Assembly: GCA_963754875.1 (NCBI GenBank)
Contig: CAVWHO010000010.1
Span: 256,001 to 320,000, forward strand
Source of the DNA: Nitrospirota bacterium
GTDB lineage: Bacteria > Nitrospirota > UBA9217
DNA: 64,000 bases
Direction of reading: 5' to 3'
In this document: positions 34,496 through 52,200 of the stretch, in pieces
Numbering within the stretch: position 1 is the first letter of the stretch
How the letters are laid out: every line of letters starts with the position of its first letter
The notes under the pieces: generated by a model
Seen by the model: only the letters and a program-made list of their open reading frames with translations
The model's database searches: none
What the model was told of the DNA's origin: nothing
Made by a program: the position numbers and the translations under genes

Positions 34496-35167
34496 TCATC
34501 GTTTTCTCTTGTCGATCGCCTTTTTTGCGTAGGGGTAAACTGTTTCTGTGACTATTCGGTATCCCTGTGCCGTCGGGTGAATCCCGTCGGCCTGGTTGAG
34601 GGACGGGTCACCTGCGAGGCCTGCAAGAAAAAAGGGGACCAGAAGCAGATTATATTTCTTTGCCACTGCGGGATAGTTGGCGTAGAATGCATCGGTATAC
34701 CTGTGCCCCAAATTTGTGACCATGCGCATGCCTGCAAGTATCACGACAACATTGTTCTCTTTCAGAATGCGAACAATTTCGTCGATATTCTTTCTGGTAA
34801 TGCGCGGGTCGATGCCCCGAAGACCGTCATTGGCGCCGGTTTCAAGAATGACGATATCGGGTTTGAGTTTCAGCACCCAGCGGACACGCGAGAGGGCGCC
34901 GCTGCTCGTTTCCCCGCTGATGCCCGCGTTGATGACCCGCCAGTTATATCCCGTGGACCTGAGCTTCTTCTCAAGCCGGGCGGGATAAGCGTTATCTTCA
35001 TCGACGCCCAAACCCGCAGTAAGACTATCGCCTACGGCGACAATCGTGCCTTCAAAAGCAGGCTGTGGAGGGTGTACCGCGGGAGTTGGTTCGTTGTGCC
35101 GTTCACATCCGATAAGAAAGAGCAAAAGAAGAATCAATGCCGTTAACCGCAGTATCAAACCATTCAT
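34496..35167 (-). CDS. tesA: Arylesterase/acyl-CoA thioesterase I (SGNH/GDSL), lipoprotein
   Basis: GDSLTAG, NAGISGETS, GANDGLRG, DGIHP; lipobox LIGC. Confidence 0.92.
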   Translation of the reverse strand: MNGLILRLTALILLLLFLIGCERHNEPTPAVHPPQPAFEGTIVAVGDSLTAGLGVDEDNAYPARLEKKLRSTGYNWRVINAGISGETSSGALSRVRWVLKLKPDIVILETGANDGLRGIDPRITRKNIDEIVRILKENNVVVILAGMRMVTNLGHRYTDAFYANYPAVAKKYNLLLVPFFLAGLAGDPSLNQADGIHPTAQGYRIVTETVYPYAKKAIDKRKR

Positions 35168-35255
35168 AATTTACCCCATTTCAACATGCAACTACTAACT
35201 GATGTCTACAGCCCTACTGTGTATAACCGTGTTCATGTAGGGTCGTCCTGGCGTA

Positions 35256-37875
35256 TCACTCCTCAGTCTGTTCCCGAAGGAACGCTGCCGGCCTTTGCCG
35301 TATGATTGAGAGGGAGGCCGCGAGACCGACAACAATTACGAGACCGGTCGTTGCGAGGACCATCACGGTACTTATGCCAGCCAAGACATTGTAGGATACG
35401 TCGAGAGCGTGCCTACAGACAAGCCAACTTACCGCCTGGGAGAGAACGAGCGCGATGAGGCCGCTTGCGAGCCCGATAAGCAGGCTTTCCACGGCAAAGA
35501 CGGACAGGACGAATCGGCCCCGGGCACCCAGGATCGTGAAATAGACAGCTTCCTGGATGCGCGTATAGCGTGTGGCGAACACGGAGCTTATAATGATAAG
35601 AATGCCGGCGACGACGCTGAAGAGCGTGAAGAAGCGGACGATCAGCGTGAGCCGTTCCATGACCCGGGCGAATACTCTCACGGTCTCCGTCACGTCGATG
35701 ACGCTCACGTTCGGGAAACGGGAAACAATACGATTTTGTAGCGGGGCAATCTGTTTTTTACCCACGCGCACGGCGGTGAAGACCGTCTGGGGAGCGTCCT
35801 TGAGTACCCGATCGGGGAAAACGAAGTAAAAGTAGGGCTGGAGTGCAGCGTGTGTCCTGGTCCTTATGCTCGAAATCCTGGCCTCGATCGGGACCCCCTG
35901 GATGTTGAACGTGATCCGGTCGCCGATTTTCATATCTCGCATGTTCAGCACTGTGTCAAGGACCGACACCTGCGCCTCCGTCCAGTCATTACGAAAAAGC
36001 TTTTTTCCTGCGACGATCCGTTCGTCTTCCAGCAGACCTTCCCGATAGGTCAGATTGAACTCTCGTGCCAGGTTATCACCTCGTTTTTGCCGCTCCGCGT
36101 CCCGGTCGATCGGCTCGTTGTTCACTGCCGTGATGGTCCCCCGGACAACAGGGTAGTATGTGGCCGGGATCGCCAGGAATCGGCTGAATGCGTTCTGCTG
36201 GTCCGGCTGGATATCGATGAAGAACAGGTTGGGGGCATCGGGGGGGTAAGACCGGACGAAAGTCGCGTCGAGGTTCTTCTCCACAAGGGTGATTGAGAAA
36301 ATGACCGCCAATGAAGCGGTAAGAGTGACGATGATCGACCTCGTCGCGTTCCCGGGACGGAACAGTCCTTTTAAAGCCTGCCGCAGTATAAGGTCCTTTG
36401 TTTGCAGCATTGTCGCCAAACGGAGAATTGCCTCGGAGCAGATGACGGAGATGAGTACGAGAAGACCGACTCCGATGACAAAGTACAGTCCTGTTTTTAT
36501 CTCGCGTATCCGCCAGAGGACCATGGCAATGAAAAAGATAATGCTTGCGCCGCCGGTGAGCCATGTTGCGCGGCTCTTGGCCTGCCGCTGGTCTTCCTTG
36601 CCGAAAATGGACCGTGGTTTGATCTCTTTGAGACGGTAAAGAGGGAGCAGGGTGAACAGAATCACCACGAGAGAACCGATTATGAGACCTTCCGCCACAG
36701 CTCCCCGGGGTATGGTCATTTCCACGTTGGCGGGAATGAGCCCGCGAAAGATGTACGGGAGAATTTTTTCAAGAAAAAAACTCGCGGCGAGTCCGAGGAG
36801 CGTCCCGACGGAGCCGAGGACTGCCACGATAATGAAATAATGAGTGATGATAAAACGGCTGCTGGACCCCACTGCTTTCATGATGGCGATGGTCCGCTCC
36901 TGTTCCTTCAGAAAAGCGGTAAGAGAGCTCTGGATGCCTATCCCGGCGAGGAGCAGCGTAAATATCCCTATGAGGTTGAGAAAAAAAAGGAAATTGTCGA
37001 AGAAACGTTTCACTCCGGAATCGGCTGTCCGAAAGGTTTCTACACGTTCACGATCCTTGTTTGATGCGGCCCGGAGTTGATCGGTAATCCGGTCCAGCTC
37101 CGTCTCATGCAGGACTTTAATGAGGATGGTGTAATTCACCCTGCTTCCCTTTCCCACAAGGTCAAGAGAGGGGATGTCAGCTGTGGAAATGAAGGTCCGC
37201 GGGCCAAGGGCAAAGAAATTTACCGGCCGGTCAGGCTCCTGGAGCACGACGTCACGGATGGTAAGGCGGGCGCTTCCAACCCTGAGACTGTCGCCAAGTT
37301 TGAGGTGGAGGCGGTCGAGAAGTGACTGTTCAACAACGATGTTGCCCCGGGTCAGCATGTTCCCGAAGGGCGCCCCGGAGGCGAGCTCCAGAGTGCCGTA
37401 GAAAGGGTAGCCGGGGTCCACCACCTTGATCCCGGACAGGAGGGATTCTTGATTTTCATAGGCAGCGGCTGTCTGAGGCGTTCCTGCGCTCCGTCCCTCG
37501 GCGGTTTCCTGAAGCGCTTGCCCGTTTGACCTTGTTGTTTTCCCCTTTTTTCCCCCGGGATACGGCCCTCCTCGCATTCCTGTCAGTCTGCACAACCGAG
37601 TAGAATTCGTAGACGCGCGCGCTTTCTATTGCTTTTCGCTTTTCCAGAGAGTCGAGCTCGTCGAGAAGACCCGATGAGAACGGGGCATGCGAATGGATAA
37701 TAATATCGGCGGCATGGAGGGCCCGGGCATCATGGAGAAAAGACGTGTGTACACTCCTGCTGAACCCGCCCAGAGACACCAGCGTTATCATGGACAAGAT
37801 AACGCAGAGGACCAAGACGGCTGACTGGTGCATTGATCCGGCGATTTGGCGGCGAATAAAATGAATATTAAGCAT
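35256..37875 (-). CDS. YbbP-like double-FtsX ABC permease, frameshifted near 37530-37560
   Basis: N-terminus in ORF 37456-37875, remainder (KVVDPGYPFYG, PNLFFIDIQPDQ, REFNLTY) in ORF 35256-37595; the break falls near a G5-A6-G4-A4 homopolymer cluster. Confidence 0.85.
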
Positions 37876-38548
37876 GGGCGACGTCCGTGTTGATTATCCC
37901 ATCACGGAGGGTGACGACCCGGTCGGCTTTTGCGGCGATTTCCTGGTTATGCGTGACCAGGACTAGGGTGGTCTTCCGTTCGCGGTGGAGCTCAAGAAGC
38001 AAATTCAGGACGGCCCTGCCATTTACCGAGTCGAGGTTGCCAGTCGGCTCATCTGCAAAGATGATCCGCGGATCGTTGACCAGGGCGCGGCAGATGGCGC
38101 AGCGCTGCTTTTCGCCGCCCGACAGCTGATGGGGAAAACTGGCTGCACGTTCGATAAGTCCGACACGGGTGAGCAGGGCCTCCGCCTTCTCACGGGCGCG
38201 GAGATCTCTCCGCAGTTCAGCGGGGAACATGACGTTTTCCAGGGTCGTCAGGGAGGGGACCAGGTGAAACGATTGGAAAACGAAACCAAAGGTGGTATTT
38301 CTGAGCGGAGCGAGCTCGTCTTCATGAAGATTGGTGATGTCCCTTCCTTCGATCAGGACACGGCCCTGGTCGGTCGTGTCAAGCCCCGAGAGAATCGACA
38401 GAAGTGTTGATTTCCCACTGCCGCTTTCACCTTCCACAACAAGAAATTCACCTCGGGCGACTGAAAGCGAAACATCGTCGAGAACCGTGATTCTCCGGTT
38501 GCCGATTGTGTAGGTCTTGGAAATATTGTTCACTTCGAGGATAGACAT
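37868..38548 (-). CDS. YbbA-like ABC ATP-binding protein
   Basis: [34 protein letters not shown]; adjacent to ybbP-like and tesA genes. Confidence 0.93.
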   Translation of the reverse strand: MSILEVNNISKTYTIGNRRITVLDDVSLSVARGEFLVVEGESGSGKSTLLSILSGLDTTDQGRVLIEGRDITNLHEDELAPLRNTTFGFVFQSFHLVPSLTTLENVMFPAELRRDLRAREKAEALLTRVGLIERAASFPHQLSGGEKQRCAICRALVNDPRIIFADEPTGNLDSVNGRAVLNLLLELHRERKTTLVLVTHNQEIAAKADRVVTLRDGIINTDVAHA

Positions 38549-38796
38549 GAATGCTCCGTGTAGAGAAAAAGTGTCCGCGTTGGAAGGGCTCGGGTGTTCC
38601 TGCACCATTCTGGTAAATAGTAACATCCCTGAAGAAGGTAGTCAATTCCCGGATATGAGCAGGCAGTACAACTCCACGGCAAATTACCGCTGCAATTGAC
38701 TTCATAAGGGATTACAGGTAGAATAAAGACCGTAAAGACCATGAACAAACCATACTGAAATTTACCGGGAAAACCCTCTTCCGAACAGGTCCGCCA

Positions 38797-39486
38797 ATGA
38801 AAAAGGTACTGCTGACGAATGATATAAAAAAACTCTTTACCGACCAAGGCAACTTTCTTGATCGTTCGGACATTAAGGTATTAACTGCGGCCACGAACGC
38901 CGAGTTACTGAAGATCCACCGGGAGAAAAAGGTAGATCTCATTGTTACCCAGTTGGAGGCGCCGGGGATCAAGAGCGAAAAAGTCTTTGACATCATCAGA
39001 GAGAACGAGGAACTGCGAAAAGTTTCCGTCATTATAATCTGCAATGATACTCTCGCGCACCGTGAGCGCTGCAAGCTGTGCCGTCCTAATGCGGTTTTTA
39101 GCATACCTGTTGATTTGCCCTTACTTTTCATAAAAATGCAGCAACTTCTCGATATTGCGCCGAGAAAGCACTATCGGGCCGCTCTCGCAGTCGGTATCCA
39201 AGGCAAATTCAAGGACCGGCCGCTTCCGTTTTGGACAGAAAATATCAGTGCCAGCGGCATGCTGATCAAGGCCGAGGAGCCCCTGTCAAAAGGCGATGGG
39301 ATTTTTTTCTCATTCTTTCTGCCTGACGGGACGCATGTCAGCGGATATGGGGAAATTACCCGCGTCAATCTTCCAGGAACGGAAGAAGGTACTTATCTTG
39401 ACGGGATCAAGTTTACCACCATAGACCCGGGGATTCGGTCAGCTATAGAAGCTGTTGTAAAGAAGAAAATACGGACATTGTCCTGA
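38797..39486 (+). CDS. Pseudo-receiver domain plus PilZ domain protein
   Basis: CheY-like N-terminus (DLIVTQLEAP, Gln at the phospho-Asp position); PilZ RKHYR and NISASG motifs. Confidence 0.82.
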   Translation: MKKVLLTNDIKKLFTDQGNFLDRSDIKVLTAATNAELLKIHREKKVDLIVTQLEAPGIKSEKVFDIIRENEELRKVSVIIICNDTLAHRERCKLCRPNAVFSIPVDLPLLFIKMQQLLDIAPRKHYRAALAVGIQGKFKDRPLPFWTENISASGMLIKAEEPLSKGDGIFFSFFLPDGTHVSGYGEITRVNLPGTEEGTYLDGIKFTTIDPGIRSAIEAVVKKKIRTLS

Positions 39487-40313: not shown

Positions 40314-41366
40314 ATGGAGAATCTAGGGACCTATCGAGGGGAAGAGGTTAAACGTGGCATCGGGTTTGTTGAGGAAAGAGCAAACCGGTATACCGCACTT
40401 CTTTACGCAAAAACAGAGCAATACCTCAAAGAGCTGAGAGATTTTGAAGTGAGATGTTCTCAGCCAGGGGCGGACGGGGAGAAACTGCTTGAAGAGATGA
40501 CAGCCCTGAATGAGTCGATGCTGCAAGCCTGTGCACAATTTGAACATGACGTGAACGATACATTTATCATTAAATCAGCACAGGTCGATTTCCGGGAAAA
40601 AACAAATCCTATCCTGTCCAAAAGCTATTGCATCAACCGGGCCAGGGTATGGCCTCAAGGTCATCAGGGAGATTACAATACCTTGGAAATTGCGTACAAG
40701 AATTCACCAATGTCCGACGGCATAGGATATTACCTGGACAAGTACGCGTTCAAGACGACAATTGCAGTCGCCGTGAGAGAACGGATCGTGACCCTGCGGG
40801 AACTTCTGAGAAAAGAGCTTATCAACAGGCGCGGGCAGAAAGTCCTCGACGTGGCCTGTGGTTCCTGCCGAGAGGTCTTCGAATTGGCACCCGAGATCAA
40901 AGCATCAGGTGCCAAGTTCACTTGTGTTGATTTGGACGCCGATGCCCTGGATTTCGCCCTTGATCGTTTCGCGCTTGCAGGCCTTTCGGAAGATTACGTG
41001 GAATTGCGCAAATACAACGCTCTCAGGATATTCGACTACGAGACAGCGGTCACGGAATTCGGAATGCAGGACATTATCTACAGCGTCGGCTATTTTGATT
41101 ATCTCCCCGACGATTTCCTCGTGAGATTGTTGAGTTCACTGTATAAGATGCTCACGCCTGGTGGAAAACTCATTGCAGCCTTCAAAGACGTCAATCGTTA
41201 CCGTCCGCAATTTTACCACTGGATCGTCAATTGGGACGGGTTCCTGCAGCGCGCCGAGGCCGATTTCGAAAGATTGCTTCAAATCGCCAAAATCCCCGGC
41301 AGTGCTATATCGATGTCCCGCGTCGATTCGGGGGCAGTTATCTTCTACTCTATCACGAAAGAGTGA
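40314..41366 (+). CDS. Class I SAM-dependent methyltransferase, PhcB-like (fatty acid methyl ester signal synthase family)
   Basis: RARVWPQGHQGDYNTLEIAY (compare the R...kP.GY.GDy motif of PhcB-like proteins), AVRER, VLDVACGSCRE, DIIYSVGYFDYL, LTPGG; AAGGAGG RBS. Confidence 0.78.
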   Translation: MENLGTYRGEEVKRGIGFVEERANRYTALLYAKTEQYLKELRDFEVRCSQPGADGEKLLEEMTALNESMLQACAQFEHDVNDTFIIKSAQVDFREKTNPILSKSYCINRARVWPQGHQGDYNTLEIAYKNSPMSDGIGYYLDKYAFKTTIAVAVRERIVTLRELLRKELINRRGQKVLDVACGSCREVFELAPEIKASGAKFTCVDLDADALDFALDRFALAGLSEDYVELRKYNALRIFDYETAVTEFGMQDIIYSVGYFDYLPDDFLVRLLSSLYKMLTPGGKLIAAFKDVNRYRPQFYHWIVNWDGFLQRAEADFERLLQIAKIPGSAISMSRVDSGAVIFYSITKE

Positions 41367-41448
41367 TTTGCTGTGTGGTGGAAATACCTGATGGCACGAT
41401 GAACGCAGGGAAGGGCATGCTCCCTTGAGCAAGCAGCAAGGTTTTGCC

Positions 41449-41477
41449 TTGTAAAGGCTGGGGAACCGTGTTATAAA
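41449..41477 (+). promoter_or_regulatory. Sigma-70 promoter candidate (extended -10) for the fab/PKS operon
   Basis: TTGTAA-17 nt-TATAAA with TGn immediately before the -10. Confidence 0.55.
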
Positions 41478-41515
41478 TGTCACGTTAGACCATCCACTCA
41501 TTTCGGGAGCAGGGC

Positions 41516-42268
41516 CTGAGACAGAATTCGCTCTTTAATAGGGTCGCGCTCGTCACGGGCGGGACGAGGGGTATCGGCCGGGCCATAGTCCTTGCTGTCT
41601 GTGGCGAGGGTGCTGATTGCGCATTTACGTTTACCAAAGACCATGCGGCAGCAGACTCCCTCGTTGAAGAAATCATTCGAATGGGCAGAAAGGCACTGCC
41701 CTTTCAACTTGATGCGCGGGATTTTGACGGCGCTAAAACGCTCGTTGACGAGGTGAAGAAACAGTTCGGAAGGCTCGATATCCTCGTCAACAACGCGGGA
41801 ATAACAAAGGACAAGTCCCTCATGATGATGAACAAGGAGGACTGGTCCGAAGTAATAGACATTAATCTTACCGGCGTTTTTAACACTGCACGAGCCTGTA
41901 TCATCACCTTTCTCAAACAAAAAAGCGGGAACATCGTGAACATGTCATCAGTCAGCGGCATACACCCGCTCCCCGGCCAGGTCAACTACGCGGCGGCAAA
42001 GGCAGGCGTGATCGGCTTTACCAAATCGCTGGCCAAGGAAGTGGCTCCCTATAACATCAGGGTCAATGCCGTTGCTCCCGGCTTTATCAACACGGAGATG
42101 ACGGCAACGCTCAGCGAAAAAAACAGGGAAAGATTTTTGAACATGATACCGCTCCACAGATTCGGGTCCTCCGATGAAGTGGCGAAGGCAGTACTTTTTT
42201 TGCTCAGTGACGAATCCCGGTACATAACCGGGCAGGTACTGCAGCTCGATGGGGGGTTGGGGATTTAA
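41516..42268 (+). CDS. fabG: 3-oxoacyl-ACP reductase (SDR), probable CTG start
   Basis: In-frame VALVTGGTRGIG upstream of the ORF-track ATG; NNAG, YAAAK, NAVAPGFI. The only start-like codon after the stop at 41486-41488 is CTG at 41516, preceded by GGGAG. Confidence 0.88.
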   Translation: MRQNSLFNRVALVTGGTRGIGRAIVLAVCGEGADCAFTFTKDHAAADSLVEEIIRMGRKALPFQLDARDFDGAKTLVDEVKKQFGRLDILVNNAGITKDKSLMMMNKEDWSEVIDINLTGVFNTARACIITFLKQKSGNIVNMSSVSGIHPLPGQVNYAAAKAGVIGFTKSLAKEVAPYNIRVNAVAPGFINTEMTATLSEKNRERFLNMIPLHRFGSSDEVAKAVLFLLSDESRYITGQVLQLDGGLGI

Positions 42269-42275
42269 TCCAGTA

Positions 42276-43508
42276 ATGAGCCGAAGAATAGTAATTACCG
42301 GCATCGGAGTTCTCTCGCCTATTGCGATCGGCAGAGAAGCATACTGGGAAGGATTGCGCCAGGGCAAAACGGGATTTCGCCCGGTGACTCTCTTTGACAC
42401 TGCACCTTTTCGTGTCCACCTCGCAGGAGAGGTCCCTGATTTTGATGCGGTTTCATTCCTCGGCAAGAAAGGCCTGCGGGACCTCGACAGGAGCACAAAA
42501 TTGGTATGCTCTGCCGCCAAACTCGCCATAGAGGACAGTAACCTTGAGATAACCGAGGCGAGTACCCACACCACGGGGGTCACCATCGGAACGACGTTTG
42601 GGAGTCTCCACAGCATCTCACAGTTCGACCGCTCGGGCCTCATCGAAGGGCCGCGGTCAGTCAATCCCTCGCATTTCCCGAACACCGTGATTAACTCTCC
42701 TGCCAGCCAGGTGTCCATCCGGTTTAAGATAAAAGGGTTCAACACCACCATTTCAACGGGTTTCTGCGCCAGCCTCGACGCCGTCTCTTATGCCACGGAC
42801 TTCATACGGCTAAACAGGGCCGACGTTGTCCTTGCCGGCGGGGTTGAAGAATTGTGCGAGGAAACCTTCATGGGATTTCATAACCTCGGTTATCTGTCGG
42901 GTGGAGACGGCTCGGAGCCCCGCTGTTGTCCCTTCGACGCCCGAAGGAACGGAACCATTTTGTCCGAAGGAGCGGCCATTCTGGTCCTAGAGGATGAGGA
43001 ACATGCGGTGAAAAGAGGCGCGACAATTCTCGCAAGCGTTCTGGGGTACGGCAATGCCTTTGATCCTTCGGCAGACAGCTCCTTCGATCATGCAGGACAA
43101 GGGTTAAAAAATGCCAGTACTCAAGCCTTGAAAGATTCCTCTCTCAATCCGAAAGACATAGACTATATCTGCGGCTGCTCCAATTCAACGAAGGGGCTGG
43201 ACAGAATGGAGACAAGGACCATAAAGGAACTTTTCGGCGAACATGCCTTCAAAATACCTGTCAGTTCAATAAAGTCCATGGTTGGAGAATGCTATTCGGC
43301 TTCCGGCGCGCTATCGCTCGCTGCAGCAGTAGGCGCGCTCCGTAACGCATTCATCCCACCCACAGTAAATTATCATGAACGGGATCCTGAGTGCGATCTC
43401 GATTATGTCCCCGGCAAGGCACGGCAAAAGCAGATAGAGAATGTACTTGTAATTGCAGCAGACCCATACGGCCAGAATACCGCCATCGTACTAGGTCGAC
43501 ACGCCTAG
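42276..43508 (+). CDS. Non-catalytic ketosynthase-like subunit (chain-length-factor type)
   Basis: Full FabF fold but STGFCAS, YICGCSNST and KSMVGEC replace STACAAG, YISAHGTGT and KSMLGH; the Cys-His-His triad is lost. Confidence 0.85.
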   Translation: MSRRIVITGIGVLSPIAIGREAYWEGLRQGKTGFRPVTLFDTAPFRVHLAGEVPDFDAVSFLGKKGLRDLDRSTKLVCSAAKLAIEDSNLEITEASTHTTGVTIGTTFGSLHSISQFDRSGLIEGPRSVNPSHFPNTVINSPASQVSIRFKIKGFNTTISTGFCASLDAVSYATDFIRLNRADVVLAGGVEELCEETFMGFHNLGYLSGGDGSEPRCCPFDARRNGTILSEGAAILVLEDEEHAVKRGATILASVLGYGNAFDPSADSSFDHAGQGLKNASTQALKDSSLNPKDIDYICGCSNSTKGLDRMETRTIKELFGEHAFKIPVSSIKSMVGECYSASGALSLAAAVGALRNAFIPPTVNYHERDPECDLDYVPGKARQKQIENVLVIAADPYGQNTAIVLGRHA

Positions 43509-43575
43509 CACGCAGTGCATGCAGCAAGAAGTCTGACTTTTTTTGCACTCTGCACATGCCGAGATCAGGTGAACG

Positions 43576-44016
43576 ATGCAGCTTGACTTTGAAGAGATAC
43601 AGAAACTCATACCTCAGCGATTTCCCTTCATCATGGTCGACAGGGTCCTTGAGGTCGAACCGGGGAAACACGCAATTGCCGTGAAGAATATTTCAGGCAA
43701 TGATATGGTTTTTCTCGGCCATTTTCCGGAAAAGGCCATCATGCCCGGCGCACTCATCCTCGAGGCAATGGCGCAGACCGCCATCATTCTATTTGCGACA
43801 GACAGAAAAAACGAGAACGCTGACAAAAAACCGCTGTATTACTTCGGGTCGGTCAAGGCGCGATTTCTCCACCCTGCGGTACCCGGTGACCAGTTAAAGA
43901 TTAAGGTCGTAAATGTTAAATTCCTGCCGAATGGTGCCTATGTGTCGGGCGAGGCATTTGTCGACGATAAAAAAATAGCCGAGGCGGAATTGGTATTCAG
44001 CATAAAGAATGAATAA
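43576..44016 (+). CDS. fabZ: 3-hydroxyacyl-ACP dehydratase
   Basis: LIPQRFPFIMVDRV, FLGHFP, MPGALILEAMAQ, PGDQL. Confidence 0.93.
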   Translation: MQLDFEEIQKLIPQRFPFIMVDRVLEVEPGKHAIAVKNISGNDMVFLGHFPEKAIMPGALILEAMAQTAIILFATDRKNENADKKPLYYFGSVKARFLHPAVPGDQLKIKVVNVKFLPNGAYVSGEAFVDDKKIAEAELVFSIKNE

Positions 44017-45226
44017 GAGAGTCGTCATAACAGGCTTGGGAGTCATATCTTCCATTGGTATCGGCAAAGACGCATTCTGGGACAGTCTGCTTCAGGGAAA
44101 GTCCGGCATAAGCCCTGTTACTGCCTTTGATACGACAAGCCATTTTACCCATAATGGAGGTGAGATAAAAAATTTTCATCCTGAAGAGTTCATCCTGAAG
44201 AAGCGGTTAAAGTTTATGAACCGTGCTACGCAAATGGTATTGGCTTCAACAAAACTTGCTTTGGAAGATGCAACATTAACTCGTGAACAACTAGTGGGCT
44301 ATCGGGTTGGAGTTTCTCAAGGAACAACAATGGGTGCAATCCATGCGATAGAAGAAATTGATCAAAGGCTTGTTAAGTCTGAGACGGTAGATAGGGAATT
44401 ATTATGTCAGTTGCCTACGCATACGGTACCCTCAGCAATTGCTCGTGAACTGTCATTGTATGGTCCTAATGTTATGTTTTCCACAGCGTGTGCTGCTGGC
44501 AATTATTCTATCGCTTACGCCTATGATCTAATCAGACTGAATAGAGCAGATATGGCGATTGCTGGAGCGTCGGATCCGTTTTCCCGAATCGAATTTACGG
44601 GTTTCAACCAGTTTTCGGCGGTCGCTCCTGAGAAATGTCAGCCTTTTGATAAAAACAGGAAGGGTATGATCTTGGCTGAAGGGGCTGGCACGCTTATACT
44701 AGAATCTCTAGAAAACGCCTTAAATAGAAAAGCCAACATTTATGCTGAAATTGGAGGCTATGGCCTTAGTTGCGATGCTCATCATATGACAAATGCTTCT
44801 ATCGAAGGAATTGCGGAGTGTATGCGAAAGGCATTACGGGAGGCAAAGATTTCCGTGGATCAAGTGGACTATATCAGCGCCCACGGTACGGGAACACGAG
44901 CAAATGATCGCGCAGAATGTGCGGCCATTAAAGAGGTCTTTGGGACACGGTATAGAGGAATTCCTATTAGTTCCATCAAGTCTATGCTCGGCCATACCAT
45001 GGGTGCAGCTTCTGCTTTAGAGGCAATTGCTTGTGCCCTTGCCGTAACCAATAATGTAATACCTCCGACGATAAATTTTGAGACGATAGACCCTGAATGC
45101 GACATTGATTGTGTGCCGAATCAAGCAAGAAAACACACTGTTAATATAGCCTTAAATAATTCATATGCTTTTGGTGGCAATAATGCTTGCCTGGTCTTAA
45201 AAAAAATAGCGGCTAAGGAGGATTAA
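44009..45226 (+). CDS. fabF: Beta-ketoacyl-ACP synthase II-like, catalytically intact
   Basis: STACAAG, AHGTGT, KSMLGHT, NSYAFGGNNA. Confidence 0.92.
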   Translation: MNKRVVITGLGVISSIGIGKDAFWDSLLQGKSGISPVTAFDTTSHFTHNGGEIKNFHPEEFILKKRLKFMNRATQMVLASTKLALEDATLTREQLVGYRVGVSQGTTMGAIHAIEEIDQRLVKSETVDRELLCQLPTHTVPSAIARELSLYGPNVMFSTACAAGNYSIAYAYDLIRLNRADMAIAGASDPFSRIEFTGFNQFSAVAPEKCQPFDKNRKGMILAEGAGTLILESLENALNRKANIYAEIGGYGLSCDAHHMTNASIEGIAECMRKALREAKISVDQVDYISAHGTGTRANDRAECAAIKEVFGTRYRGIPISSIKSMLGHTMGAASALEAIACALAVTNNVIPPTINFETIDPECDIDCVPNQARKHTVNIALNNSYAFGGNNACLVLKKIAAKED

Positions 45227-45234
45227 TTATAACA

Positions 45235-45474
45235 ATGCCAGAAAATGTGGAAAAAGAAATAGCTTCGATAATCTCAGAGGTATCAGGACTTGATCCAGAA
45301 GAGATCACACCTGAAAAAAATTTTTTTAAAGATCTTGAAATCGACTCTATAAAAGCTATCGAGATTACCGTGGCAATTGAGAAAAAATTTAAAATATCAG
45401 TAAGAGATGAAGACGTCCCTAAAATAACAACCGTTAAAGAGGCCGTAGAACTCGTAAATAAATTAGTAAACTAG
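45235..45474 (+). CDS. Acyl carrier protein
   Basis: Acidic 79 aa, DLEIDSIKAIEI (phosphopantetheine Ser), IEKKFKI; AAGGAGG RBS. Confidence 0.93.
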   Translation: MPENVEKEIASIISEVSGLDPEEITPEKNFFKDLEIDSIKAIEITVAIEKKFKISVRDEDVPKITTVKEAVELVNKLVN

Positions 45475-45487
45475 GGAAGTATCTCGC

Positions 45488-46925
45488 ATGCTAAAGACTA
45501 ATAAAGATGCTTATGATGCGGTGATCATCGGGGCTGGAATCAGCGGCCTAGTATGTGCCTGCTACCTTGCAAAGGGTGGCATGAAAATTCTTCTCGTAGA
45601 ACAACATCATAAAACGGGAGGGTACTGTACTTCCTTTAAAAGAAAAAATTATAATTTCGATGCCGCGGCCCATTCTTTTGGCAGCTACCGTGAGGGCGGC
45701 ATAATGAGAAAGATTTTGAGAGACTTGGAGGTGGACAAGAAACTCGGCATCCGGCGATATGATCCTTCAGATATTATTCTTGCGCCTGGTTATAAAATCA
45801 GTTTCTGGGCTGACAATCGCAAAACAATAAGTGAATTACAGGTGGCATTTCCTCATGAGGCTGCTGGAATAAGCAGTTTTTTTCATTTTTTACAGAGGTT
45901 CAGGTCCTTTTCAAATGGCGACCTTGCGAAACAAAACTTTCAAAGATCTTTTAGATCAGTATATTACAGACGACCGGTTAAAAGCGATTCTTTCGTTTCC
46001 CATATTAGGAAATGGTGGCTTGCCATCGTCACTGATTTCAGCCTTTACGGCTACAATATTGTACACCGAGTTTTATCTTGATGGTGGATATTATCCTGAG
46101 GGTGGTATGCAAGCGTTACCGGATGCTCTTGCAACCAGGTTTAAGGAACTTGGTGGCGAGTTAAGGCTCTCATGCCCTGCAAAAAAAATTAAAGTTGAGT
46201 ACAATAAAACTGTTAGTGTGGTTGTTGGCGATGGTGAAGTCGTATCTACCAGATACGTAATATCTTGTTGCGACGCACGACAAACGTTTTTGAAGCTTGT
46301 GTCTTCTACAGCCTTGAATAATGATTTTTCGCGTACCATTCGAAAATTGCAGCCTTCTCCATCGTTTTTTATTGCCTATCTCGGCACCGATGGCTCCCCC
46401 CTGCCTTCATTGGAGCCTGGAGCCAGTGTATGGGTCATGCCAGATTATAAGATTGAAGCATTGTATGGTTCGTATATTAAGAAGAACGCTGTTGATAGTG
46501 CATCGGCCTTTATGCTTCGCGTCCCTCCTGATAATAGAAGTCTGCAGGCGTTTATCATTGCGCCCTATAAGAGCAAGCAATATTGGCGCAATAATAAACG
46601 TGAAGTCCTGGAGAACTTTGTTGCGAGAATCGACAGAATTTTCCCGGGTTTGTCCCCTCATATTCAGTACCGGGAAGCGGCTACGCCTTACACACTATAC
46701 CGATACACCTTAAACTATGAGGGTGCAGCGTATGGGTGGGCAAGTATGCCTTCGCAGTTGTTCAGTCGAGGTTTAATGCAGACGACGCCCATTGAAAATT
46801 TATACTTAGCTGGCCACTGGACTACGCAGACGCAGGGGATTTCCGGTGCAGCTTATATAGGGAATGAAACAGCAAAGTTGGTTCTTAAAAAAGCGAAATC
46901 CCAGAGGGTTGTCGTACCTGTTTAA
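45488..46925 (+). CDS. FAD-dependent oxidoreductase, phytoene desaturase-like family, frameshifted near 45880-45910
   Basis: IIGAGISGL...EQH...GGYC in ORF 45488-46081; YYPEGGMQAL, ATPYT..RYTLN..GAAYG, NLYLAGHWT in ORF 45915-46925; the break is near T7/T6 runs. Confidence 0.88.
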
Positions 46926-46937
46926 TATAAGAACTTT

Positions 46938-49091
46938 ATGGATAAAAAAAAGCTTTACATAGAAGAGAAGTTCAGCGAACTGTCAAAATTCTGGCTTGGC
47001 ACGGTCCTTCTAATCGGCTCTGGACTTTTTTTGTTGCTAGGTGTTATGGATTATATAAGTACGCCAGAAAATTTTAGCAAGTTTATCATGTACAGACTTT
47101 TCGTCTCCATCTCCCTTGTCATATTGCATTTCTTCTCCAAAAAAATTTCCAATAGAAGACATTTCCTCATCATTTTTTCATTGGCAGTCATAATCTCTGC
47201 ATTCAGTATCGAACTCATGATACTCGACTTCGGCGGTCATCAATCTCCTTATTATGTGGGGCTGATTATTTTAGTTGTTTGCGTTTTTCTGATCCCGATT
47301 GATCTTGCTTTCTCATTATGGGGAATCAGCCTGATATATTTTATATATTTAGTACCTACTGTACTTTTCGACCATATAATCCATTATCGCGTTTTTTTTA
47401 CTTCCAATGCCTTCATGCTCTCATTCTTTGTCATAGCCGCCATTTGGCGCTATTGGAATCAGAGAAGTATTATCAACGAATTGTCGCTTCAGTACGATCT
47501 TGAGCAGCAGAATAAAAAACTCGAAAGCTACTCCGTCCAGCTCAAAGCCATGGTCGAAGACAGGACAAAAGAACTGGTCAAGTCTGAACAGTGGCACCGG
47601 TCTCTTGTTGACAATGCAACTGACGGGATCGTCGTCCTCGACAGAAACGGCATGATCATCAATGTAAATGATAAGGCCTGTGAAATGCACGGATTTACCC
47701 ATGAAGCGCTGGTTGGCACCCACGTCAAGCTTCTTGAATCAGACAGCAAGAAAGAAGAGATGGCCGAAAGAATGAACCGCATCCTGAATGGCGAGAGCCA
47801 GGTCTTCGAATCCGTGCACAACAAAAAAGATGGAACGCCTTTGTATCTTGAGATCAGTTCTACGGCGATCACCATCGGCGATGAGCTGTTCATTCAGTCC
47901 TTTTACCGTGATATTACTGAAAAGAAAAAACTCCAAGAATATCTTTTCCAATCCCAAAAAATGGATTCGATCGGCGTTCTCGCCGGCGGCATTGCCCACG
48001 ACTTCAACAATATCCTGACGGCAATTCTCGGTCATGCGTCAATCATGCGCCGCAGTGTCTTGGAGGACAAGGCCATGCACAGCCTGAACGTGATCGAAGA
48101 TGCCTCGCGTAGGGCGGGGAGGATGATCTCAAAGCTTCTCGGCTTCGCGCGCAAGAGCAACTATGAATTCGTGCCGCTCGATCTGAACGATATCGTCTAC
48201 GAGACGGTGAAGCTTCTCGAAAAGGTCATTGACGCGAAGATCAGCATCAGTGTTGACCTCGACAACCGCCTTCCGTCCATCCAGGGAGATATGAACCATA
48301 TCGAACAGGTCGTTATGAACCTCATTGTCAACGCCCGCGACGCCATGCCGAACGGCGGCCGCATCGTCATCAAGACGACAGCGGTAGAAATCGTCAAGGG
48401 CATGCCTGACGTGCCGCCTTACGTCCTGCCCGGAACGTATGTTCTGCTGAGCCTGACAGATACGGGTACGGGCATGTCCAAAGACGTCTTGGGCAAGATC
48501 TTCGAGCCGTTTTATACGACGAAGGAACGCGGAAAAGGCACAGGCCTCGGCCTGTCTATGGTCTATGGGACCATTAAGGAACACAAGGGATACATTACGG
48601 TACAGAGTGAACTGGGCATGGGAACCGTCTTTACCATCTATCTTCCCGCCTCAATAGCCGCCGTTCGAACGGAAGTGAAGAGACCGGAAACTTCTGTCAG
48701 CGGGCATGAAACAGTACTGATCGTCGACGATGAGCATGATATCTTGGGAGCGATGCAGGAGACCCTCTCGAGCCGTGGTTACAGAGTGTTTGCGGTCAAC
48801 GATCCAAGTTCGGCTATCGACCTAGTAAAAAAGATGCCGCACGAAATAGACCTGGTGATAACGGACATCGTCATGCCCCGGTTAAACGGCAAAGAGCTTA
48901 TCAGCCAGATAAAAACGATCAACGCCGACGTCAAGGTCCTTGCCATCTCCGGGTATACAAAATATGTCTCGCAGACAGATGAGATCGGGGAGATCAACGG
49001 ATTTCTGCAGAAGCCCTTCGAGTCATACTACCTGCTGTCCGTGGTACGACGCATTCTCGATGCTCGACCCAATGATTTGGTCAAGACGTGA
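46938..49091 (+). CDS. Hybrid sensor histidine kinase (multi-TM input, PAS, HisKA, HATPase, REC)
   Basis: About 5-6 TM with GGHQSPYYVGL; AGGIAHDFNNIL, NLIVNARDAM, GKGTGLGL; receiver LVITDIVMP...KPF. Confidence 0.95.
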   Translation: MDKKKLYIEEKFSELSKFWLGTVLLIGSGLFLLLGVMDYISTPENFSKFIMYRLFVSISLVILHFFSKKISNRRHFLIIFSLAVIISAFSIELMILDFGGHQSPYYVGLIILVVCVFLIPIDLAFSLWGISLIYFIYLVPTVLFDHIIHYRVFFTSNAFMLSFFVIAAIWRYWNQRSIINELSLQYDLEQQNKKLESYSVQLKAMVEDRTKELVKSEQWHRSLVDNATDGIVVLDRNGMIINVNDKACEMHGFTHEALVGTHVKLLESDSKKEEMAERMNRILNGESQVFESVHNKKDGTPLYLEISSTAITIGDELFIQSFYRDITEKKKLQEYLFQSQKMDSIGVLAGGIAHDFNNILTAILGHASIMRRSVLEDKAMHSLNVIEDASRRAGRMISKLLGFARKSNYEFVPLDLNDIVYETVKLLEKVIDAKISISVDLDNRLPSIQGDMNHIEQVVMNLIVNARDAMPNGGRIVIKTTAVEIVKGMPDVPPYVLPGTYVLLSLTDTGTGMSKDVLGKIFEPFYTTKERGKGTGLGLSMVYGTIKEHKGYITVQSELGMGTVFTIYLPASIAAVRTEVKRPETSVSGHETVLIVDDEHDILGAMQETLSSRGYRVFAVNDPSSAIDLVKKMPHEIDLVITDIVMPRLNGKELISQIKTINADVKVLAISGYTKYVSQTDEIGEINGFLQKPFESYYLLSVVRRILDARPNDLVKT

Positions 49092-49333
49092 CAGCCGTGT
49101 TTCCCGAAAAGTGTGTGTTTTATAGGTGCAGATTTGCGGTGTGTGGATTGGATGAATTGGGGTCATCGTCGGCCGAGATCGCACTCATGTGCGCGTGAGT
49201 ACGGCCGTCATTGCTCGTGCGTGCGGTCAAGTGAGAGGGACAGGAATTAATGAAAAGTCCATTTCAGACACAATGTACCGCCTGTTTCTTTCTATTTGGA
49301 GAATTCGGTCAGAAACCCGTAAATTATGAAAAG

Positions 49334-49353
49334 TAGTGCCGCTGACCGGAATC
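49334..49353 (-). repeat. Short degenerate copy of the tRNA-Leu 3' end (att-like scar)
   Basis: tagtgccgctgaccggaatc, 18/20 identical to 52112-52131. Confidence 0.75.
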
Positions 49354-49482
49354 TCACTCGATTTGCTTCCCGATGAGGCCTGCCCCCTAAGGTGCTCCCC
49401 CGAAGCATGGGGTATCTTTCACCCTATTCTCCCCGTTGTTCAACCCCGCTCAGCAGAGAACAAGTAGGCAAGGAGGAATTAA

Positions 49483-49522
49483 TAGTGCCGCTGACCGGGA
49501 TCGAACCGGCAGGACAGTTGCC
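49483..49522 (-). repeat. 40-bp copy of the tRNA-Leu 3' half (att-like site)
   Basis: 37/40 identical to 52112-52151, same orientation. Confidence 0.9.
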
Positions 49523-49650
49523 GGTGATGAAATAGATGAAAACGGTGCACTCGCCCTGCATAACCCTGTGCAGATGGATATCGGATAAAAAGTTTTTGCG
49601 ATAGCGGTGTCCGCTCTTCGGCGTATTCCGAAGGGACAAGGAGGTAAGTC

Positions 49651-52026
49651 GTGACAAAAGAACAGTATGTCGATGAGCGTTACACTGCCCAACTCCACTA
49701 CTGGGCAACGCTCGGCCTCGGGGTGGGCTCTCTCATCGTCCTCATGCTTGTTCCTCTCGACTATGCGACCGTTCCGGCTCAATTCCGCTCATTTTTGGTA
49801 TACCGTCTCGTCGCCGCAAGCATCCTTTTTTTGCTGTATCTGGTCAACAGAAAAAGAGTAAATAGTGGTCTGCAGAACAGCTCCATAGTCACAGCAGGCG
49901 CAGTGGTCGCCGCCATGGTGGCCGCTATGGTCCACGACTTCCACGGTCATGAGTCGCCCTATTACGCTGGGTTCATCCTCGATGCCATATACGTCGCCGC
50001 TATCGTCCCGACATCATTCGGAGTAAACGTGCTCGCCGCGCTGCTCGTCTACTTCATTTACCTAGCGCCCATCCTTGCATACGACACGATCACGAACAAG
50101 CCATACTTCATGTCGGCGAATATCCTGATGCTTGCCTCATTTGCATCGCTGCTCCTGCTCCAGTATCTTAGGGGCAAGCAGACCCTGAAACAGTTCGATC
50201 TCGAATATGAGCTGCGCGCGAGCGAAGAGGAACTGCTTTATTTCCAAATGGCTGTGGCCAGCGCCACAGATGCAATAGGTATATCTACGCCTGATGGAAG
50301 GCATTATTATCAAAATGAGGCTTTTACTAATTTGTTCGGGTCATCGGTTAGTAAAGTAGCCGGTGCTTCAGAGCCACCGGCAACCATATACGCCGATGAA
50401 AAAGTGGGAAGGAAGATTTATGACATAATTATGAAAGGTGGTTCGTTCGCCGGCGAAGTGCAAATGTTCGATAAGAATAATGACCTAAAGGATATTTATG
50501 TTCGGGCATATTCTATTAAAAATAAAGAAGATAAAGTTGTCGGCCTAGTCGATATGCACACCGACATCACCGAGCAACGGCAGGCTGAGAAAAGACTCAG
50601 AAAGAGCGAAAGTCAATTACGCGAGTCCCAGAAGGTCGCCAAGCTGGGGAATTGGGATCTCGATCTTGTTTTGCAGAAACTTGAATGGTCGGATCAGACG
50701 TTCAGACTGTTCGATAAAAACCAAAAGGAGTTTGTGCCGTCCTTTAATGAGTTTACCCGGTTAGTGCATCCAAACGATCTTGATACGATGATGACCAATT
50801 TTGATAATGTGCTGAACAGCGACTCTCCTCACTACCATACGGTTGTCCGGATCATCAACGACTCTGGTCGCGAGTGGGTAATGGAAGCCCTTGGCGTTGT
50901 CAGGCGAGATACTTCCGGTAAGGCCCTCAGTATCTTTGGTACCGCTCAGGACATCACCGAACGTAAGCATGCCGAGAAGAAAATTCGACAGAGCGAGCAG
51001 TTCATCCGCAACATCCTCGACACAGTGGACGAAGGATTCATTGTCATTGACACTAATTATCGCATCCTGATAGCCAACAAGGCATACTGCAGCCAGGTGG
51101 GCGGTTGCGTTGAGAATATTATCGGACATCACTGCTATGAGATATCGCACAAAAAATGCCGGCCCTGTTATGAAGAGGGCGAGAACTGCGCGACACACCA
51201 GGCAATTGAAACGGGCAAGCCTCATTCCGCATTTCACTATTACAAAGACGCCAATGGAAATATTCTTTATGTAGAGACCAAGGCCTTCCCTATCAAAGAT
51301 GCATCCGGAACCGTAACCTCTGTCATTGAGACGATCAACAATATCACCGAAAAGCACCTTCTGGAAGAGGAAAAGAGACACCAGCAGGAGAAAGAGAAGA
51401 TCCTCATGGACATTCATGACGGGATCGGCGGCATAACGACCAATATCAGCCTGCTGTCCGAGGTGGCCCGGAAGGCGCAGTCCCCGGAAGACGTCAACAG
51501 GGCGCTCGCCACCATCGCGAACCTGTCGCGGGAGGGTTTGGGTGAGATAAGAAGCCTCATGCACAGCCTTGACAGTAAGGACCTGAGCTGGCATGCTTGC
51601 GTCGCGGAATTGAGAAACCAGGGCATGTCGATCGTCAAGGCCCACAAGATATCCTTTGACATGACTTCACAAATTGATGACGTCAGCGGCGAGCCCGGAA
51701 GCATTTTATATTTGAACCTATTCAGGATTTACCGTGAAGCCCTCACCAATATCGTAAAGCATTCTCAGGCAACCAAAGTCGTCGTCAGTTTCCGGGTCTG
51801 CATGGAGGACCTGACTTTGACCGTGCAGGACAACGGCCGGGGACGGGATCGTTCTGCCACCCTGAACCGAGGCAGGGGGTTGACCAATATGAAAAACCGG
51901 GCAAATGAGATCGGGGGGGCAGTCACTGTCTCGACGGATGAGGGGACGTGCGTCTGTGTCACGGTTCCACTCCTCATGAAATCCCCAACCAGCCCGATTG
52001 AATTTTCGAAAAAGGTTCTCGAATAA
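49651..52026 (+). CDS. Sensor histidine kinase (multi-TM input, 3 PAS, HisKA_3, HATPase)
   Basis: TM domain with HGHESPYYAGF; PAS ends DITEQR/DITERK/NITEK; MDIHDGIGG, REALTNIVKHS, DNGRG, GRGLTNM; GTG start with AAGGAGG RBS. Confidence 0.93.
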   Translation: MTKEQYVDERYTAQLHYWATLGLGVGSLIVLMLVPLDYATVPAQFRSFLVYRLVAASILFLLYLVNRKRVNSGLQNSSIVTAGAVVAAMVAAMVHDFHGHESPYYAGFILDAIYVAAIVPTSFGVNVLAALLVYFIYLAPILAYDTITNKPYFMSANILMLASFASLLLLQYLRGKQTLKQFDLEYELRASEEELLYFQMAVASATDAIGISTPDGRHYYQNEAFTNLFGSSVSKVAGASEPPATIYADEKVGRKIYDIIMKGGSFAGEVQMFDKNNDLKDIYVRAYSIKNKEDKVVGLVDMHTDITEQRQAEKRLRKSESQLRESQKVAKLGNWDLDLVLQKLEWSDQTFRLFDKNQKEFVPSFNEFTRLVHPNDLDTMMTNFDNVLNSDSPHYHTVVRIINDSGREWVMEALGVVRRDTSGKALSIFGTAQDITERKHAEKKIRQSEQFIRNILDTVDEGFIVIDTNYRILIANKAYCSQVGGCVENIIGHHCYEISHKKCRPCYEEGENCATHQAIETGKPHSAFHYYKDANGNILYVETKAFPIKDASGTVTSVIETINNITEKHLLEEEKRHQQEKEKILMDIHDGIGGITTNISLLSEVARKAQSPEDVNRALATIANLSREGLGEIRSLMHSLDSKDLSWHACVAELRNQGMSIVKAHKISFDMTSQIDDVSGEPGSILYLNLFRIYREALTNIVKHSQATKVVVSFRVCMEDLTLTVQDNGRGRDRSATLNRGRGLTNMKNRANEIGGAVTVSTDEGTCVCVTVPLLMKSPTSPIEFSKKVLE

Positions 52027-52111
52027 GGATCAAGTCCTTACTTTTTTACTACGTTTTGAAAATAGAATTGATTTTTACTGATGAGAAAAATGCGGTAAAT
52101 TACTGATTTTG

Positions 52112-52200
52112 TGGTGCCGCTGACCGGGATCGAACCGGTACGACAGTTGCCCGTCGAGAGATTTTAAGTCTCTTGCGTCTGCCAATTCCGCCACAGCGGC
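52112..52200 (-). tRNA. tRNA-Leu (anticodon UAA)
   Basis: Reverse complement GCCGCTG...AGAGA-CTTAAAA-TCTCT, long variable arm, GGTTCGATCC, CAGCGGC-A-CCA. Confidence 0.97.

Follow-up and report, generated by a model that had tools for sequence, protein, structure and literature searches.

A probable fatty-acid methyl ester signalling locus of Nitrospirota that joins PhcB- and PhcS-like ends to an anammox-type ketosynthase cassette

Introduction

Positions 40314..52026 of the window (the whole 64,000-nucleotide stretch of DNA analysed here, part of contig C10 of the assembly that we label G000; relatives' genomes and loci are labelled G001, L031 and so on) carry a methyltransferase gene, a cassette of chain-building genes and two membrane histidine kinase genes, raising the question of what the cassette makes and whether the kinases read its product as a signal. 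A reading of the sequence alone (hereafter, the sequence-only reading) had proposed that a PhcB-like methyltransferase makes a fatty acid methyl ester autoinducer there. Following up this proposal, we conclude that this is probably a conserved quorum-sensing locus of Nitrospirota, making a medium-chain unsaturated fatty-acid methyl ester in several strain-specific types. Profile and neighbourhood comparisons established that the two ends of the locus are homologous to PhcB and PhcS and are constantly linked.

The NCBI names of close homologues place the window in Nitrospirota. All genes from 40314 to 49091 lie on the forward strand in the order of Table 1, with 12 nt between the oxidoreductase and the first kinase, so that the gene set, order, co-orientation and gap given in the sequence-only reading were all confirmed. 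This order recurs in dozens of genomes, and the layout is therefore not a matter of chance.

Results

Relationship of the methyltransferase to PhcB

The methyltransferase (METHYLTRANSFERASE) is, as judged by sequence and profile comparison, a distant relative of the PhcB family. The PhcB reference set consisted of Paraburkholderia, Cupriavidus and Janthinobacterium proteins, not Ralstonia's own. The window protein and the Paraburkholderia PhcB-like protein share 27% identity over 205 aa, the profiles of the two families (window type and PhcB type) matched each other at 97.7% over 222 columns, and a whole-genome search with the PhcB profile returned this gene as the top match (E 1.6e-10; next match, 0.008). 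Membership is distant but reciprocal, and the protein fell with PhcB-like proteins as had been proposed. In addition, several close homologues carry the Joint Genome Institute (JGI) name '3-hydroxypalmitic acid methyl ester biosynthesis protein'.

The reference operon, on the conjugative plasmid L110 of Paraburkholderia graminis (NZ_CP024936.1, 6476-10851), has the phcBSRQ-like order methyltransferase-kinase-regulator-regulator, and was the sole match of the first kinase's membrane domain in the plasmid collection. Its methyltransferase is 65-70% identical to the Cupriavidus and Janthinobacterium proteins and has Arg22, a residue mutated in GMI1000 PhcB and said to be conserved in Paraburkholderia (PMC6989110). 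The PhcQ and PhcS positions given in that paper were not matched by number in the Paraburkholderia operon.

The window protein has 350 aa, as compared with 463-468 aa for PhcB; the ~110-aa N-terminal extension is absent, and the alignment spans PhcB residues 201-439. No match was obtained between the PhcB extension and the PilZ extensions that Nitrospirota-type homologues carry (probability 0.1%). A search of the G000 genome with Pfam PF12147 gave no match, and no solved structure close to the methyltransferase was found (best sequence match E 0.004). A fold search returned generic class I enzymes only, with SgvM and 3OCJ at Z 22, and a search of the ESM Atlas returned unnamed methyltransferase clusters only. 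Methyltransferase homologues in databases bear PilZ or receiver-PilZ fusions, a hint of control by cyclic di-GMP. A receiver-PilZ protein with intact RxxxR and NxSxxG motifs is encoded upstream in the window (38797-39486); we rejected it as a part of the locus, as such a gene lies near the locus in only 2 of 69 related loci.

The region 40314-52026 encodes no thioesterase, acyltransferase or ligase, in agreement with the sequence-only reading, which had taken methylation itself for the step that releases the chain. This last suggestion is weak, because PhcB is described as acting on cognate fatty acids (PMC7912708), and methylation probably follows release rather than causing it. An Enterobacter plasmid (NZ_CP134637.1, L108:9631-12768) leaves room for methylation as the release step: a modular polyketide synthase (PKS) there ends in ketosynthase (KS), acyl carrier protein (ACP) and PhcB-like methyltransferase, with no thioesterase match. 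The arrangement suggests that the PhcB-like family may cap chains at the ends of assembly lines. Genes for a GDSL hydrolase, an ABC permease and an ATPase lie upstream in the window (34496-38626), the first being a candidate for the missing hydrolysis step; as parts of the locus the hydrolase and permease were rejected, being near it in 0 of 69 related loci.

Relationship of the first kinase to PhcS

Going beyond what the sequence-only reading had stated, profile comparison indicates that the six-helix input domain of the first kinase is itself homologous to PhcS-type receptors. A profile built exclusively on 38 Nitrospirota-type domains matched, over the whole domain, the kinase of the Paraburkholderia operon at 77.9 bits and a Janthinobacterium protein named PhcS at 63.9 bits. 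As controls, 400 shuffles scored no higher than 15.9 bits and unrelated G000 proteins no higher than 8.9 bits, the latter maximum excluding four family members and one weak copy in G000. Weak MASE8 matches, below the cut-off, were found on both sides of the comparison. The predicted model of the domain consists of six helices with short loops (predicted local distance difference test score, 93). Its best fold matches were ImcA (Z 16.3; root-mean-square deviation 3.6, 199 residues aligned) and the membrane domains of adenylyl cyclases (Z 15.4 and 14.9), and Foldseek gave no match below E 0.001 with the sensor domain. The adenylyl-cyclase membrane design has been linked to CqsS and LqsS, receptors of lipophilic signals (PMC4821796).

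Orphan receptors of this family exist, as G000 holds three more strong copies of the input domain. PhcS-like input domains at C3:5044-6969, C19:78062-81358 and C22:99156-99887, two of them strong and one weak, have no methyltransferase adjoining; 1.5 kb away from the C3 copy is a gene that by eye resembles a hot-dog thioesterase. An Asn after the YYAG motif was seen in 9 of 11 cassette-free sensors versus 1 of 27 cassette sensors. We discounted it as a repeated signature, since its bearers form about one clade and represent a single event.

Conservation and history of the linkage

After one short locus and eight weak hits from Lachnospiraceae had been set aside, we had 69 loci around methyltransferase matches, and 61 loci were left once partial matches and duplicates had been removed. 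The sensor lies downstream in 42 of these, with the cassette in between in 30 and as the direct neighbour of the methyltransferase in 12. Another 16 loci end too early, so that a kinase stands downstream in 42 of the 45 informative loci; the cassette occurs without a sensor in three (L077, L091 and L080, the cassette of L080 reaching the edge of the stretch). The sequence-only reading had tied both kinases to the cassette: co-occurrence held for the first, and the second proved to be a passenger of a local islet.

A search anchored on the dead KS avoids a bias toward the methyltransferase. This KS was present in 23 of 151 genomes of the phylum, each of which has the methyltransferase and the sensor as well. 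The metagenome set comprised at least 80 loci with the dead-KS motif, 36 of them of the window type by KS score; 28 of the 36 show the methyltransferase and 14 the sensor. Among the metagenome loci listed with enough room, none was without methyltransferase or sensor, and all 14 that are long enough end in the sensor. Furthermore, 25 of 36 sampled genomes of this family of uncultured Nitrospirota have the methyltransferase.

In a quick methyltransferase tree with a distant root, the 43 cassette-linked rows form one clade (Shimodaira-Hasegawa-like approximate likelihood ratio test, 99) nested among cassette-free pairs. The methyltransferase-kinase pair is therefore the older element, and the topology shows a single entry of the cassette into it. 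In the sensor tree rooted on PhcS the cassette-free rows are nested instead, but this tree has a very long branch and is built on an exchanged domain.

Relationship of the cassette to anammox Cluster I

The two KS genes are an inactive and an active one, as had been noted before: the Cys-His-His triad is intact in the active KS (33 of 33 rows), while in the dead KS its Cys is replaced by Phe, one His by Cys and the other by Glu. The best match in the PDB was 9S5H for both, chain C for the dead KS (405 bits versus 268 for the next) and chain B for the active KS (484 bits versus 344 for the next, 6KXD being second). FabZ best matched 8AYD, 7QV0 and 8AYB, which are structures of the anammox enzyme amxFabZ (PMC10139942), and the ACP lies near 7QV0_D, 9S5I_E, 7AUF and mycobacterial AcpM, with no single clear best. 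We infer that 9S5H is the anammox KS heterodimer of a preprint (bioRxiv 10.64898/2026.05.19.726425); the main text of the preprint is without the code 9S5H, but its three tunnel residues line up once the numbering is shifted by one. According to the preprint, this dimer of a KS with a chain-length factor (CLF) makes acetoacetyl-ACP from malonyl-ACP and reacts best with a C8 probe, and its tunnels fit C12 or C16. AmxFabZ has been described as preferring chains up to C6-C8.

The dead KS keeps its tunnel residues Phe/Thr/Val (Phe135, Thr138 and Val139 of the preprint) in 39 of 39 rows. The Ile gate of FabZ (Ile70; Ile69 in amxFabZ) is present in 33 of 33 rows, as is Leu at position 115; position 96, Ser/Thr in the amxFabZ signature, is mostly Leu or Phe, with Ser in 1 of 33. 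The housekeeping FabZ of G000 has Gly and Arg at the signature positions. Identity to an anammox-type metagenome locus was 56% for KS, 46% for dead KS, 49% for FabZ and 37% for the oxidoreductase (an intact relative being used). On these matches the cassette is, among solved structures, the closest relative of anammox Cluster I; the dedicated chain-building machinery of the sequence-only reading stood, but it is no generic fatty acid synthase.

Cluster I (kustE3603-3608), proposed for ladderanes, comprises amxACP, amxFabZ, amxFabF2, amxFabFmut, a phytoene-dehydrogenase-like enzyme (PDH) and a B12 radical S-adenosylmethionine (SAM) enzyme (rSAM). The window shares with it a FabF2/FabFmut-type pair, the dead triad and the tunnel residues. 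However, the Cluster I order ACP-FabZ-FabF2-FabFmut-PDH-rSAM is not that of the window locus, which is without the radical SAM gene and adds the methyltransferase, FabG and the sensor kinase. A Cluster I-like radical SAM gene is present, at 28%, in three related loci (L051, L064 and L080), where a B12-type enzyme of this kind is the alternative tailoring gene; in six others (L053, L060, L068, L083, L086 and L088; four scanned) the alternative is a cyclopropane-synthase-like methyltransferase gene. No PhcB-like or PhcS-like neighbour was found in three fully read anammox-type loci, which have the B12 radical SAM gene. The cluster has been called unique to ladderane producers (PMC10139942 and bioRxiv 10.64898/2026.05.19.726425), and a ladderane product of Cluster I is not shown for anammox bacteria either (PMC10139942). 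The available text of the literature found on the ladderane/anammox FabF ketosynthase heterodimer does not mention 'Nitrospir'.

Five loci from other metagenome lineages (L118, L119, L122, L133 and L161) have the same KS/dead-KS core together with membrane kinases, of the HisKA_7TM-GAF type in 4 of 5; a PhcB-like methyltransferase is encoded in L118, a reductase in L119, and a gene resembling thioester reductases is found in L122 and L161. G000 itself carries two other type II acyl clusters (C8:145-12377 and C10:2600-15600), which, by open reading frame lists only, include KS, CrtI-like or radical SAM, transport and transferase genes.

Joint exchange of the tailoring enzyme and the sensor domain

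We compared the window with its nearest relative, G001. Identity is 85% for the methyltransferase and 91% for each of FabG, dead KS and FabZ; it falls to 77% for KS, 84% for ACP, 45-60% for the oxidoreductase and 37% for the sensor domain, and is 90% for PAS, 86% for the kinase core and 85% for the receiver. At the DNA level, identity drops at ~44170 and comes back sharply at ~47520, inside the kinase gene just past the sixth helix. The tract in between (3.3 kb) has a GC content of 0.42 versus 0.51.

Distance correlations were calculated over 16 complete loci. Sensor distances tracked oxidoreductase distances, with rho 0.56 (partial 0.62, p 0.0005), but followed neither the kinase's own PAS domain (0.04) nor the methyltransferase (-0.08). 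In the flanks the window groups with G001 as its sister, and this sisterhood was rejected by the approximately unbiased (AU) test for the oxidoreductase (p 1.9e-5) and the sensor (5.2e-6); in both of these trees G001 joins L069, a grouping named after the data had been seen. Among 21 close pairs, sensor identity was 37-63% in 19 and 87-92% in 2. Specifically, the sensors of window/L031, L036/L037 and L068/L069 are diverged and their PAS domains 90-93% identical, and in L036/L037 and L068/L069 the drop in the sensor accompanies loss or replacement of the tailoring gene. Discordant trees and pairwise identities together establish that the tailoring enzyme and the kinase membrane domain were exchanged jointly, and from this we infer co-adaptation of enzyme and sensor.

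The pattern is that of the staphylococcal agr groups, in which a hypervariable tract between conserved flanks spans the genes for signal production together with the 5' portion of the receptor kinase that does the sensing (PMC3673130); here, too, the tract covers synthesis genes and the sensing half of a receptor, and the trees are discordant. However, the agr signal is a ribosomal peptide and agr is without sequence homology to the window locus, so that the likeness is an analogy only.

The second kinase and the tRNA-Leu islet

The second kinase begins 559 nt past the first, between tRNA-Leu and a 41-nt copy of the tRNA 3' end. Its membrane domain is homologous to that of the first kinase, as had been claimed (29% identity over 187 aa). 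This domain groups, however, with L039 (99/93) rather than with the first kinase, and the PAS block of the second kinase shares 76% identity with an unlinked protein of G001; the gene is absent from the corresponding place in relatives. These comparisons indicate that the second kinase is a chimeric passenger of a tRNA-Leu islet, outside the conserved unit; at a guess, it listens for another group's signal. The islet (49334-52200) is without an integrase and carries only this kinase, and a second, shorter att-like copy (20 nt, 49334-49353) suggests an earlier insertion. As no tRNA was found in 22 related loci, the islet is local.

Features of the window genes

The coordinates are collected in Table 1. 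The promoter candidate 5' of the cassette has counterparts in L050, L056 and L059 by a loose pattern search; it is absent from the promoter-scanner list, and the promoter/terminator scan gave no excess over shuffles. FabG is complete, its CTG start (41516-41518) being preceded by a Shine-Dalgarno-like GGAG. Among the 5' ends of fabG, 22 of 23 have ATG, GTG, TTG or CTG at this very codon, mostly the weak ones (CTG, TTG, GTG) and ATG in 2, which suggests a deliberately low ketoreductase level.

The frameshift in the oxidoreductase sits in T7/T6 runs (45877-45891). It is probably an assembly error, because the gene is mostly unbroken in relatives (464-478 aa) and 12 of 92 testable genes with close homologues, including fabF on C20, are split across frames in the G000 assembly. 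In a search of raw reads, no run contained more than 8% of the window's words, and no RNA run was listed as sharing them.

Table 1. Coordinates of the features of the locus and of the adjoining islet in the window
Feature	Position	Strand	Basis or remark
PhcB-family class I SAM methyltransferase, 350 aa, predicted signal synthase	40314..41366	+	homology
Candidate sigma70-like promoter TTGTAA-17-TATAAA, 5' of cassette	41449..41477	+	seen in sequence
FabG ketoreductase, CTG start, optional (many loci without)	41516..42268	+	
Dead ketosynthase, chain-length-factor type	42276..43508	+	triad lost
FabZ dehydratase, anammox type, Ile in acyl tunnel	43576..44016	+	PDB matches
Active ketosynthase, Cys161/His292/His329	44009..45226	+	PDB match, triad
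Dedicated acyl carrier protein	45235..45474	+	PP-binding domain
CrtI/CrtISO-like FAD oxidoreductase, single frameshift, variable tailoring gene	45488..46925	+	
Hybrid histidine kinase, predicted receptor: six-helix PhcS-like input (residues 1-195), PAS, HisKA, HATPase, receiver	46938..49091	+	
Low-GC variable tract: most of KS, ACP, oxidoreductase, kinase membrane domain	44170..47520	.	ends inside kinase gene
Att-like 41-nt copy of tRNA-Leu 3' end	49485..49525	.	
Second kinase: PhcS-like input of another allele group, three PAS, HisKA_3	49651..52026	+	
tRNA-Leu(TAA), other islet end	52112..52200	-	

Discussion

Proposed mechanism

We propose that the KS and the dead KS form a heterodimer that would be self-primed from malonyl-ACP like the anammox pair, with malonyl transfer and ACP priming supplied by primary metabolism. 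FabG and the Ile-gated FabZ would reduce and dehydrate short intermediates. Because the cassette is without an enoyl reductase, early double bonds would persist, and the 3-hydroxyl may be retained on the final, longer intermediate, so that the predicted product is a ~C8-C14 (3-hydroxy)enoic or polyenoic acid. The signal type would be set by the flavoenzyme, or in other alleles by the cyclopropane-synthase-like methyltransferase or B12 radical SAM enzyme, through reduction, isomerisation or methylation of double bonds. The acid might be freed by an unlinked hydrolase or by the PhcB-like methyltransferase itself, and methylation would render it neutral and diffusible. The ester would then bind the six-helix domain and switch the phosphorelay of the hybrid kinase.

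Comparison with known systems

The closest known system is phcBSRQ of Ralstonia and Cupriavidus, whose signals are methyl 3-hydroxymyristate or methyl 3-hydroxypalmitate. There, too, a PhcB-family methyltransferase gene lies upstream of a kinase gene with a homologous six-helix input, and in the 12 cassette-free related loci the two are direct neighbours, as are phcB and phcS. However, identity is ~27%, the N-terminal extension is absent, the two genes are separated by a dedicated KS/CLF cassette that includes tailoring enzymes, the window kinase is a PAS-containing hybrid, and phcR and phcQ are absent. Signal type in Ralstonia follows the PhcB and PhcS trees (PMC7694676), whereas the window-type sensor follows the tailoring enzyme and not the methyltransferase. 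Within the data of PMC5995829, the phc system is intact only in Cupriavidus and Ralstonia. The locus accordingly appears to work like phcB-phcS but is not a member of phcBSRQ, because it has no phcR/phcQ and another architecture; likewise, it shares the core of Cluster I but is not Cluster I.

Highly reducing type II PKS systems of the ishigamide type also have KS/CLF, ketoreductase (KR), dehydratase (DH) and ACP genes without an enoyl reductase, and a heterodimer is predicted for the window locus. An amide-forming ligase is a feature of the ishigamide pathway; the window locus is without one and has the methyltransferase and the sensor instead. CqsA- and LqsA-type synthases are pyridoxal phosphate enzymes, a further difference from the window locus. 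CqsA/CqsS and LqsA/LqsS are nevertheless like it in having a synthase beside a six-helix membrane kinase, and our model matches the adenylyl-cyclase membrane fold that has been clustered with CqsS (PMC4821796).

Among the openly accessible papers that our literature searches covered (subscription papers lay outside their scope), we found no description of this architecture, as the sequence-only reading had expected, and no relevant paper on PhcB-type quorum sensing in Nitrospirota.

Alternative explanations

An unlikely alternative, although the strongest one, is that the cassette makes a specialised membrane or protective lipid, a role put forward for anammox Cluster I, that the methyltransferase caps, and that the kinase monitors the cell's own membrane, which would be self-sensing or homeostasis rather than communication between cells. 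The KS pair, FabZ and flavoenzyme are closest to proposed ladderane enzymes, three loci carry the B12 radical SAM gene, and co-exchange of sensor and enzyme is expected also if a sensor reads the cell's own product. However, a methyl ester cannot attach to glycerol, and the locus has no acyltransferase; the 12 loci that consist of methyltransferase and kinase only look like the ancestral state; and many alleles among close relatives, together with orphan receptors of other alleles, fit group recognition better.

Less likely still, the product could be a secreted bioactive polyene or antibiotic-like ester, the kinase being a pathway-specific regulator or a sensor for self-protection. Antagonistic compounds also diversify with matched sensors, and KS/CLF, KR, DH and ACP without an enoyl reductase are the layout of a highly reducing type II PKS. 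The second-best PDB match of the active KS, 6KXD, is the ishigamide KS (bioRxiv 10.64898/2026.05.19.726425). On the other hand, the neighbourhood of the cassette in the listed loci shows no conserved exporter or resistance gene, and both flanking genes are homologous to a known signal synthase and receptor.

That the kinase is linked to the cassette by position only, the tract being a recombination hot spot and the kinase sensing something unrelated, is very improbable: these loci do attract insertions (toxin-antitoxin-like and transposase-like small genes in L080-L082, the tRNA islet here) and adjacent genes hitchhike, but the tract ends at the junction between the membrane domain and the cytoplasmic part, the sensors of the three pairs named above diverged beside nearly identical PAS domains, and the pairing of methyltransferase and sensor occurs in Betaproteobacteria as well.

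Several points weigh against our preferred reading, that of a quorum-sensing locus. The release step has no explanation within the locus, and this copy of the oxidoreductase is frameshifted as assembled. No PhcR- or PhcQ-like regulator was found in the operon; the kinase has its own receiver, and no regulator genes follow. In Ralstonia, loss of phcS alone leaves quorum phenotypes (PMC13532016). Identity to PhcB is just 27%, and it was obtained with Paraburkholderia, Cupriavidus and Janthinobacterium proteins rather than Ralstonia's own. Family members occur without a PhcS-like neighbour on a Rhizobium plasmid (L109) and in the Enterobacter PKS (L108), so that membership is no proof of signalling, and L077 and L091 have the cassette and no adjacent sensor. 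The top fold match of the input domain, ImcA, appears in a paper on iron response (PMC10904736), and the fold therefore names no ligand. As for the exchange, PAS also correlates with the oxidoreductase (partial 0.42), and one recombination tract can move oxidoreductase and sensor without co-adaptation, since the two adjoin. The related loci compared there are not independent, and the genomes are kin, so that the linkage counts measure conservation and not independent events.

Implications

If the quorum-sensing reading is correct, methyl-ester quorum sensing reaches far past Betaproteobacteria, into an uncultured Nitrospirota family, and specificity groups of the agr kind, in which enzyme and receptor alleles are matched, can exist for a lipid signal. 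A broader picture is possible, although we hold it doubtful: PhcB/PhcS-type signalling would be common among uncultured Nitrospirota, and the core of the 'ladderane' Cluster I would have been recruited as a modular signal factory whose swappable tailoring enzymes (flavoenzyme, cyclopropane-type methyltransferase, B12 radical SAM) are each matched to their own receptor domain, a small-molecule counterpart of the agr groups. Signalling may even be the usual role of this KS/CLF family, since in metagenome loci of other lineages this core stands together with seven-helix kinases and with release enzymes of other kinds; anammox Cluster I would then be a repurposed offshoot or not a ladderane pathway.

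The finding contradicts the published view that only ladderane producers have the Cluster I enzymes. Anammox bacteria give no genetic access to the question of what the core makes, and its relatives described here, which are simpler and either have or lack the flavoenzyme or the B12 radical SAM enzyme, offer a direct route to its product.

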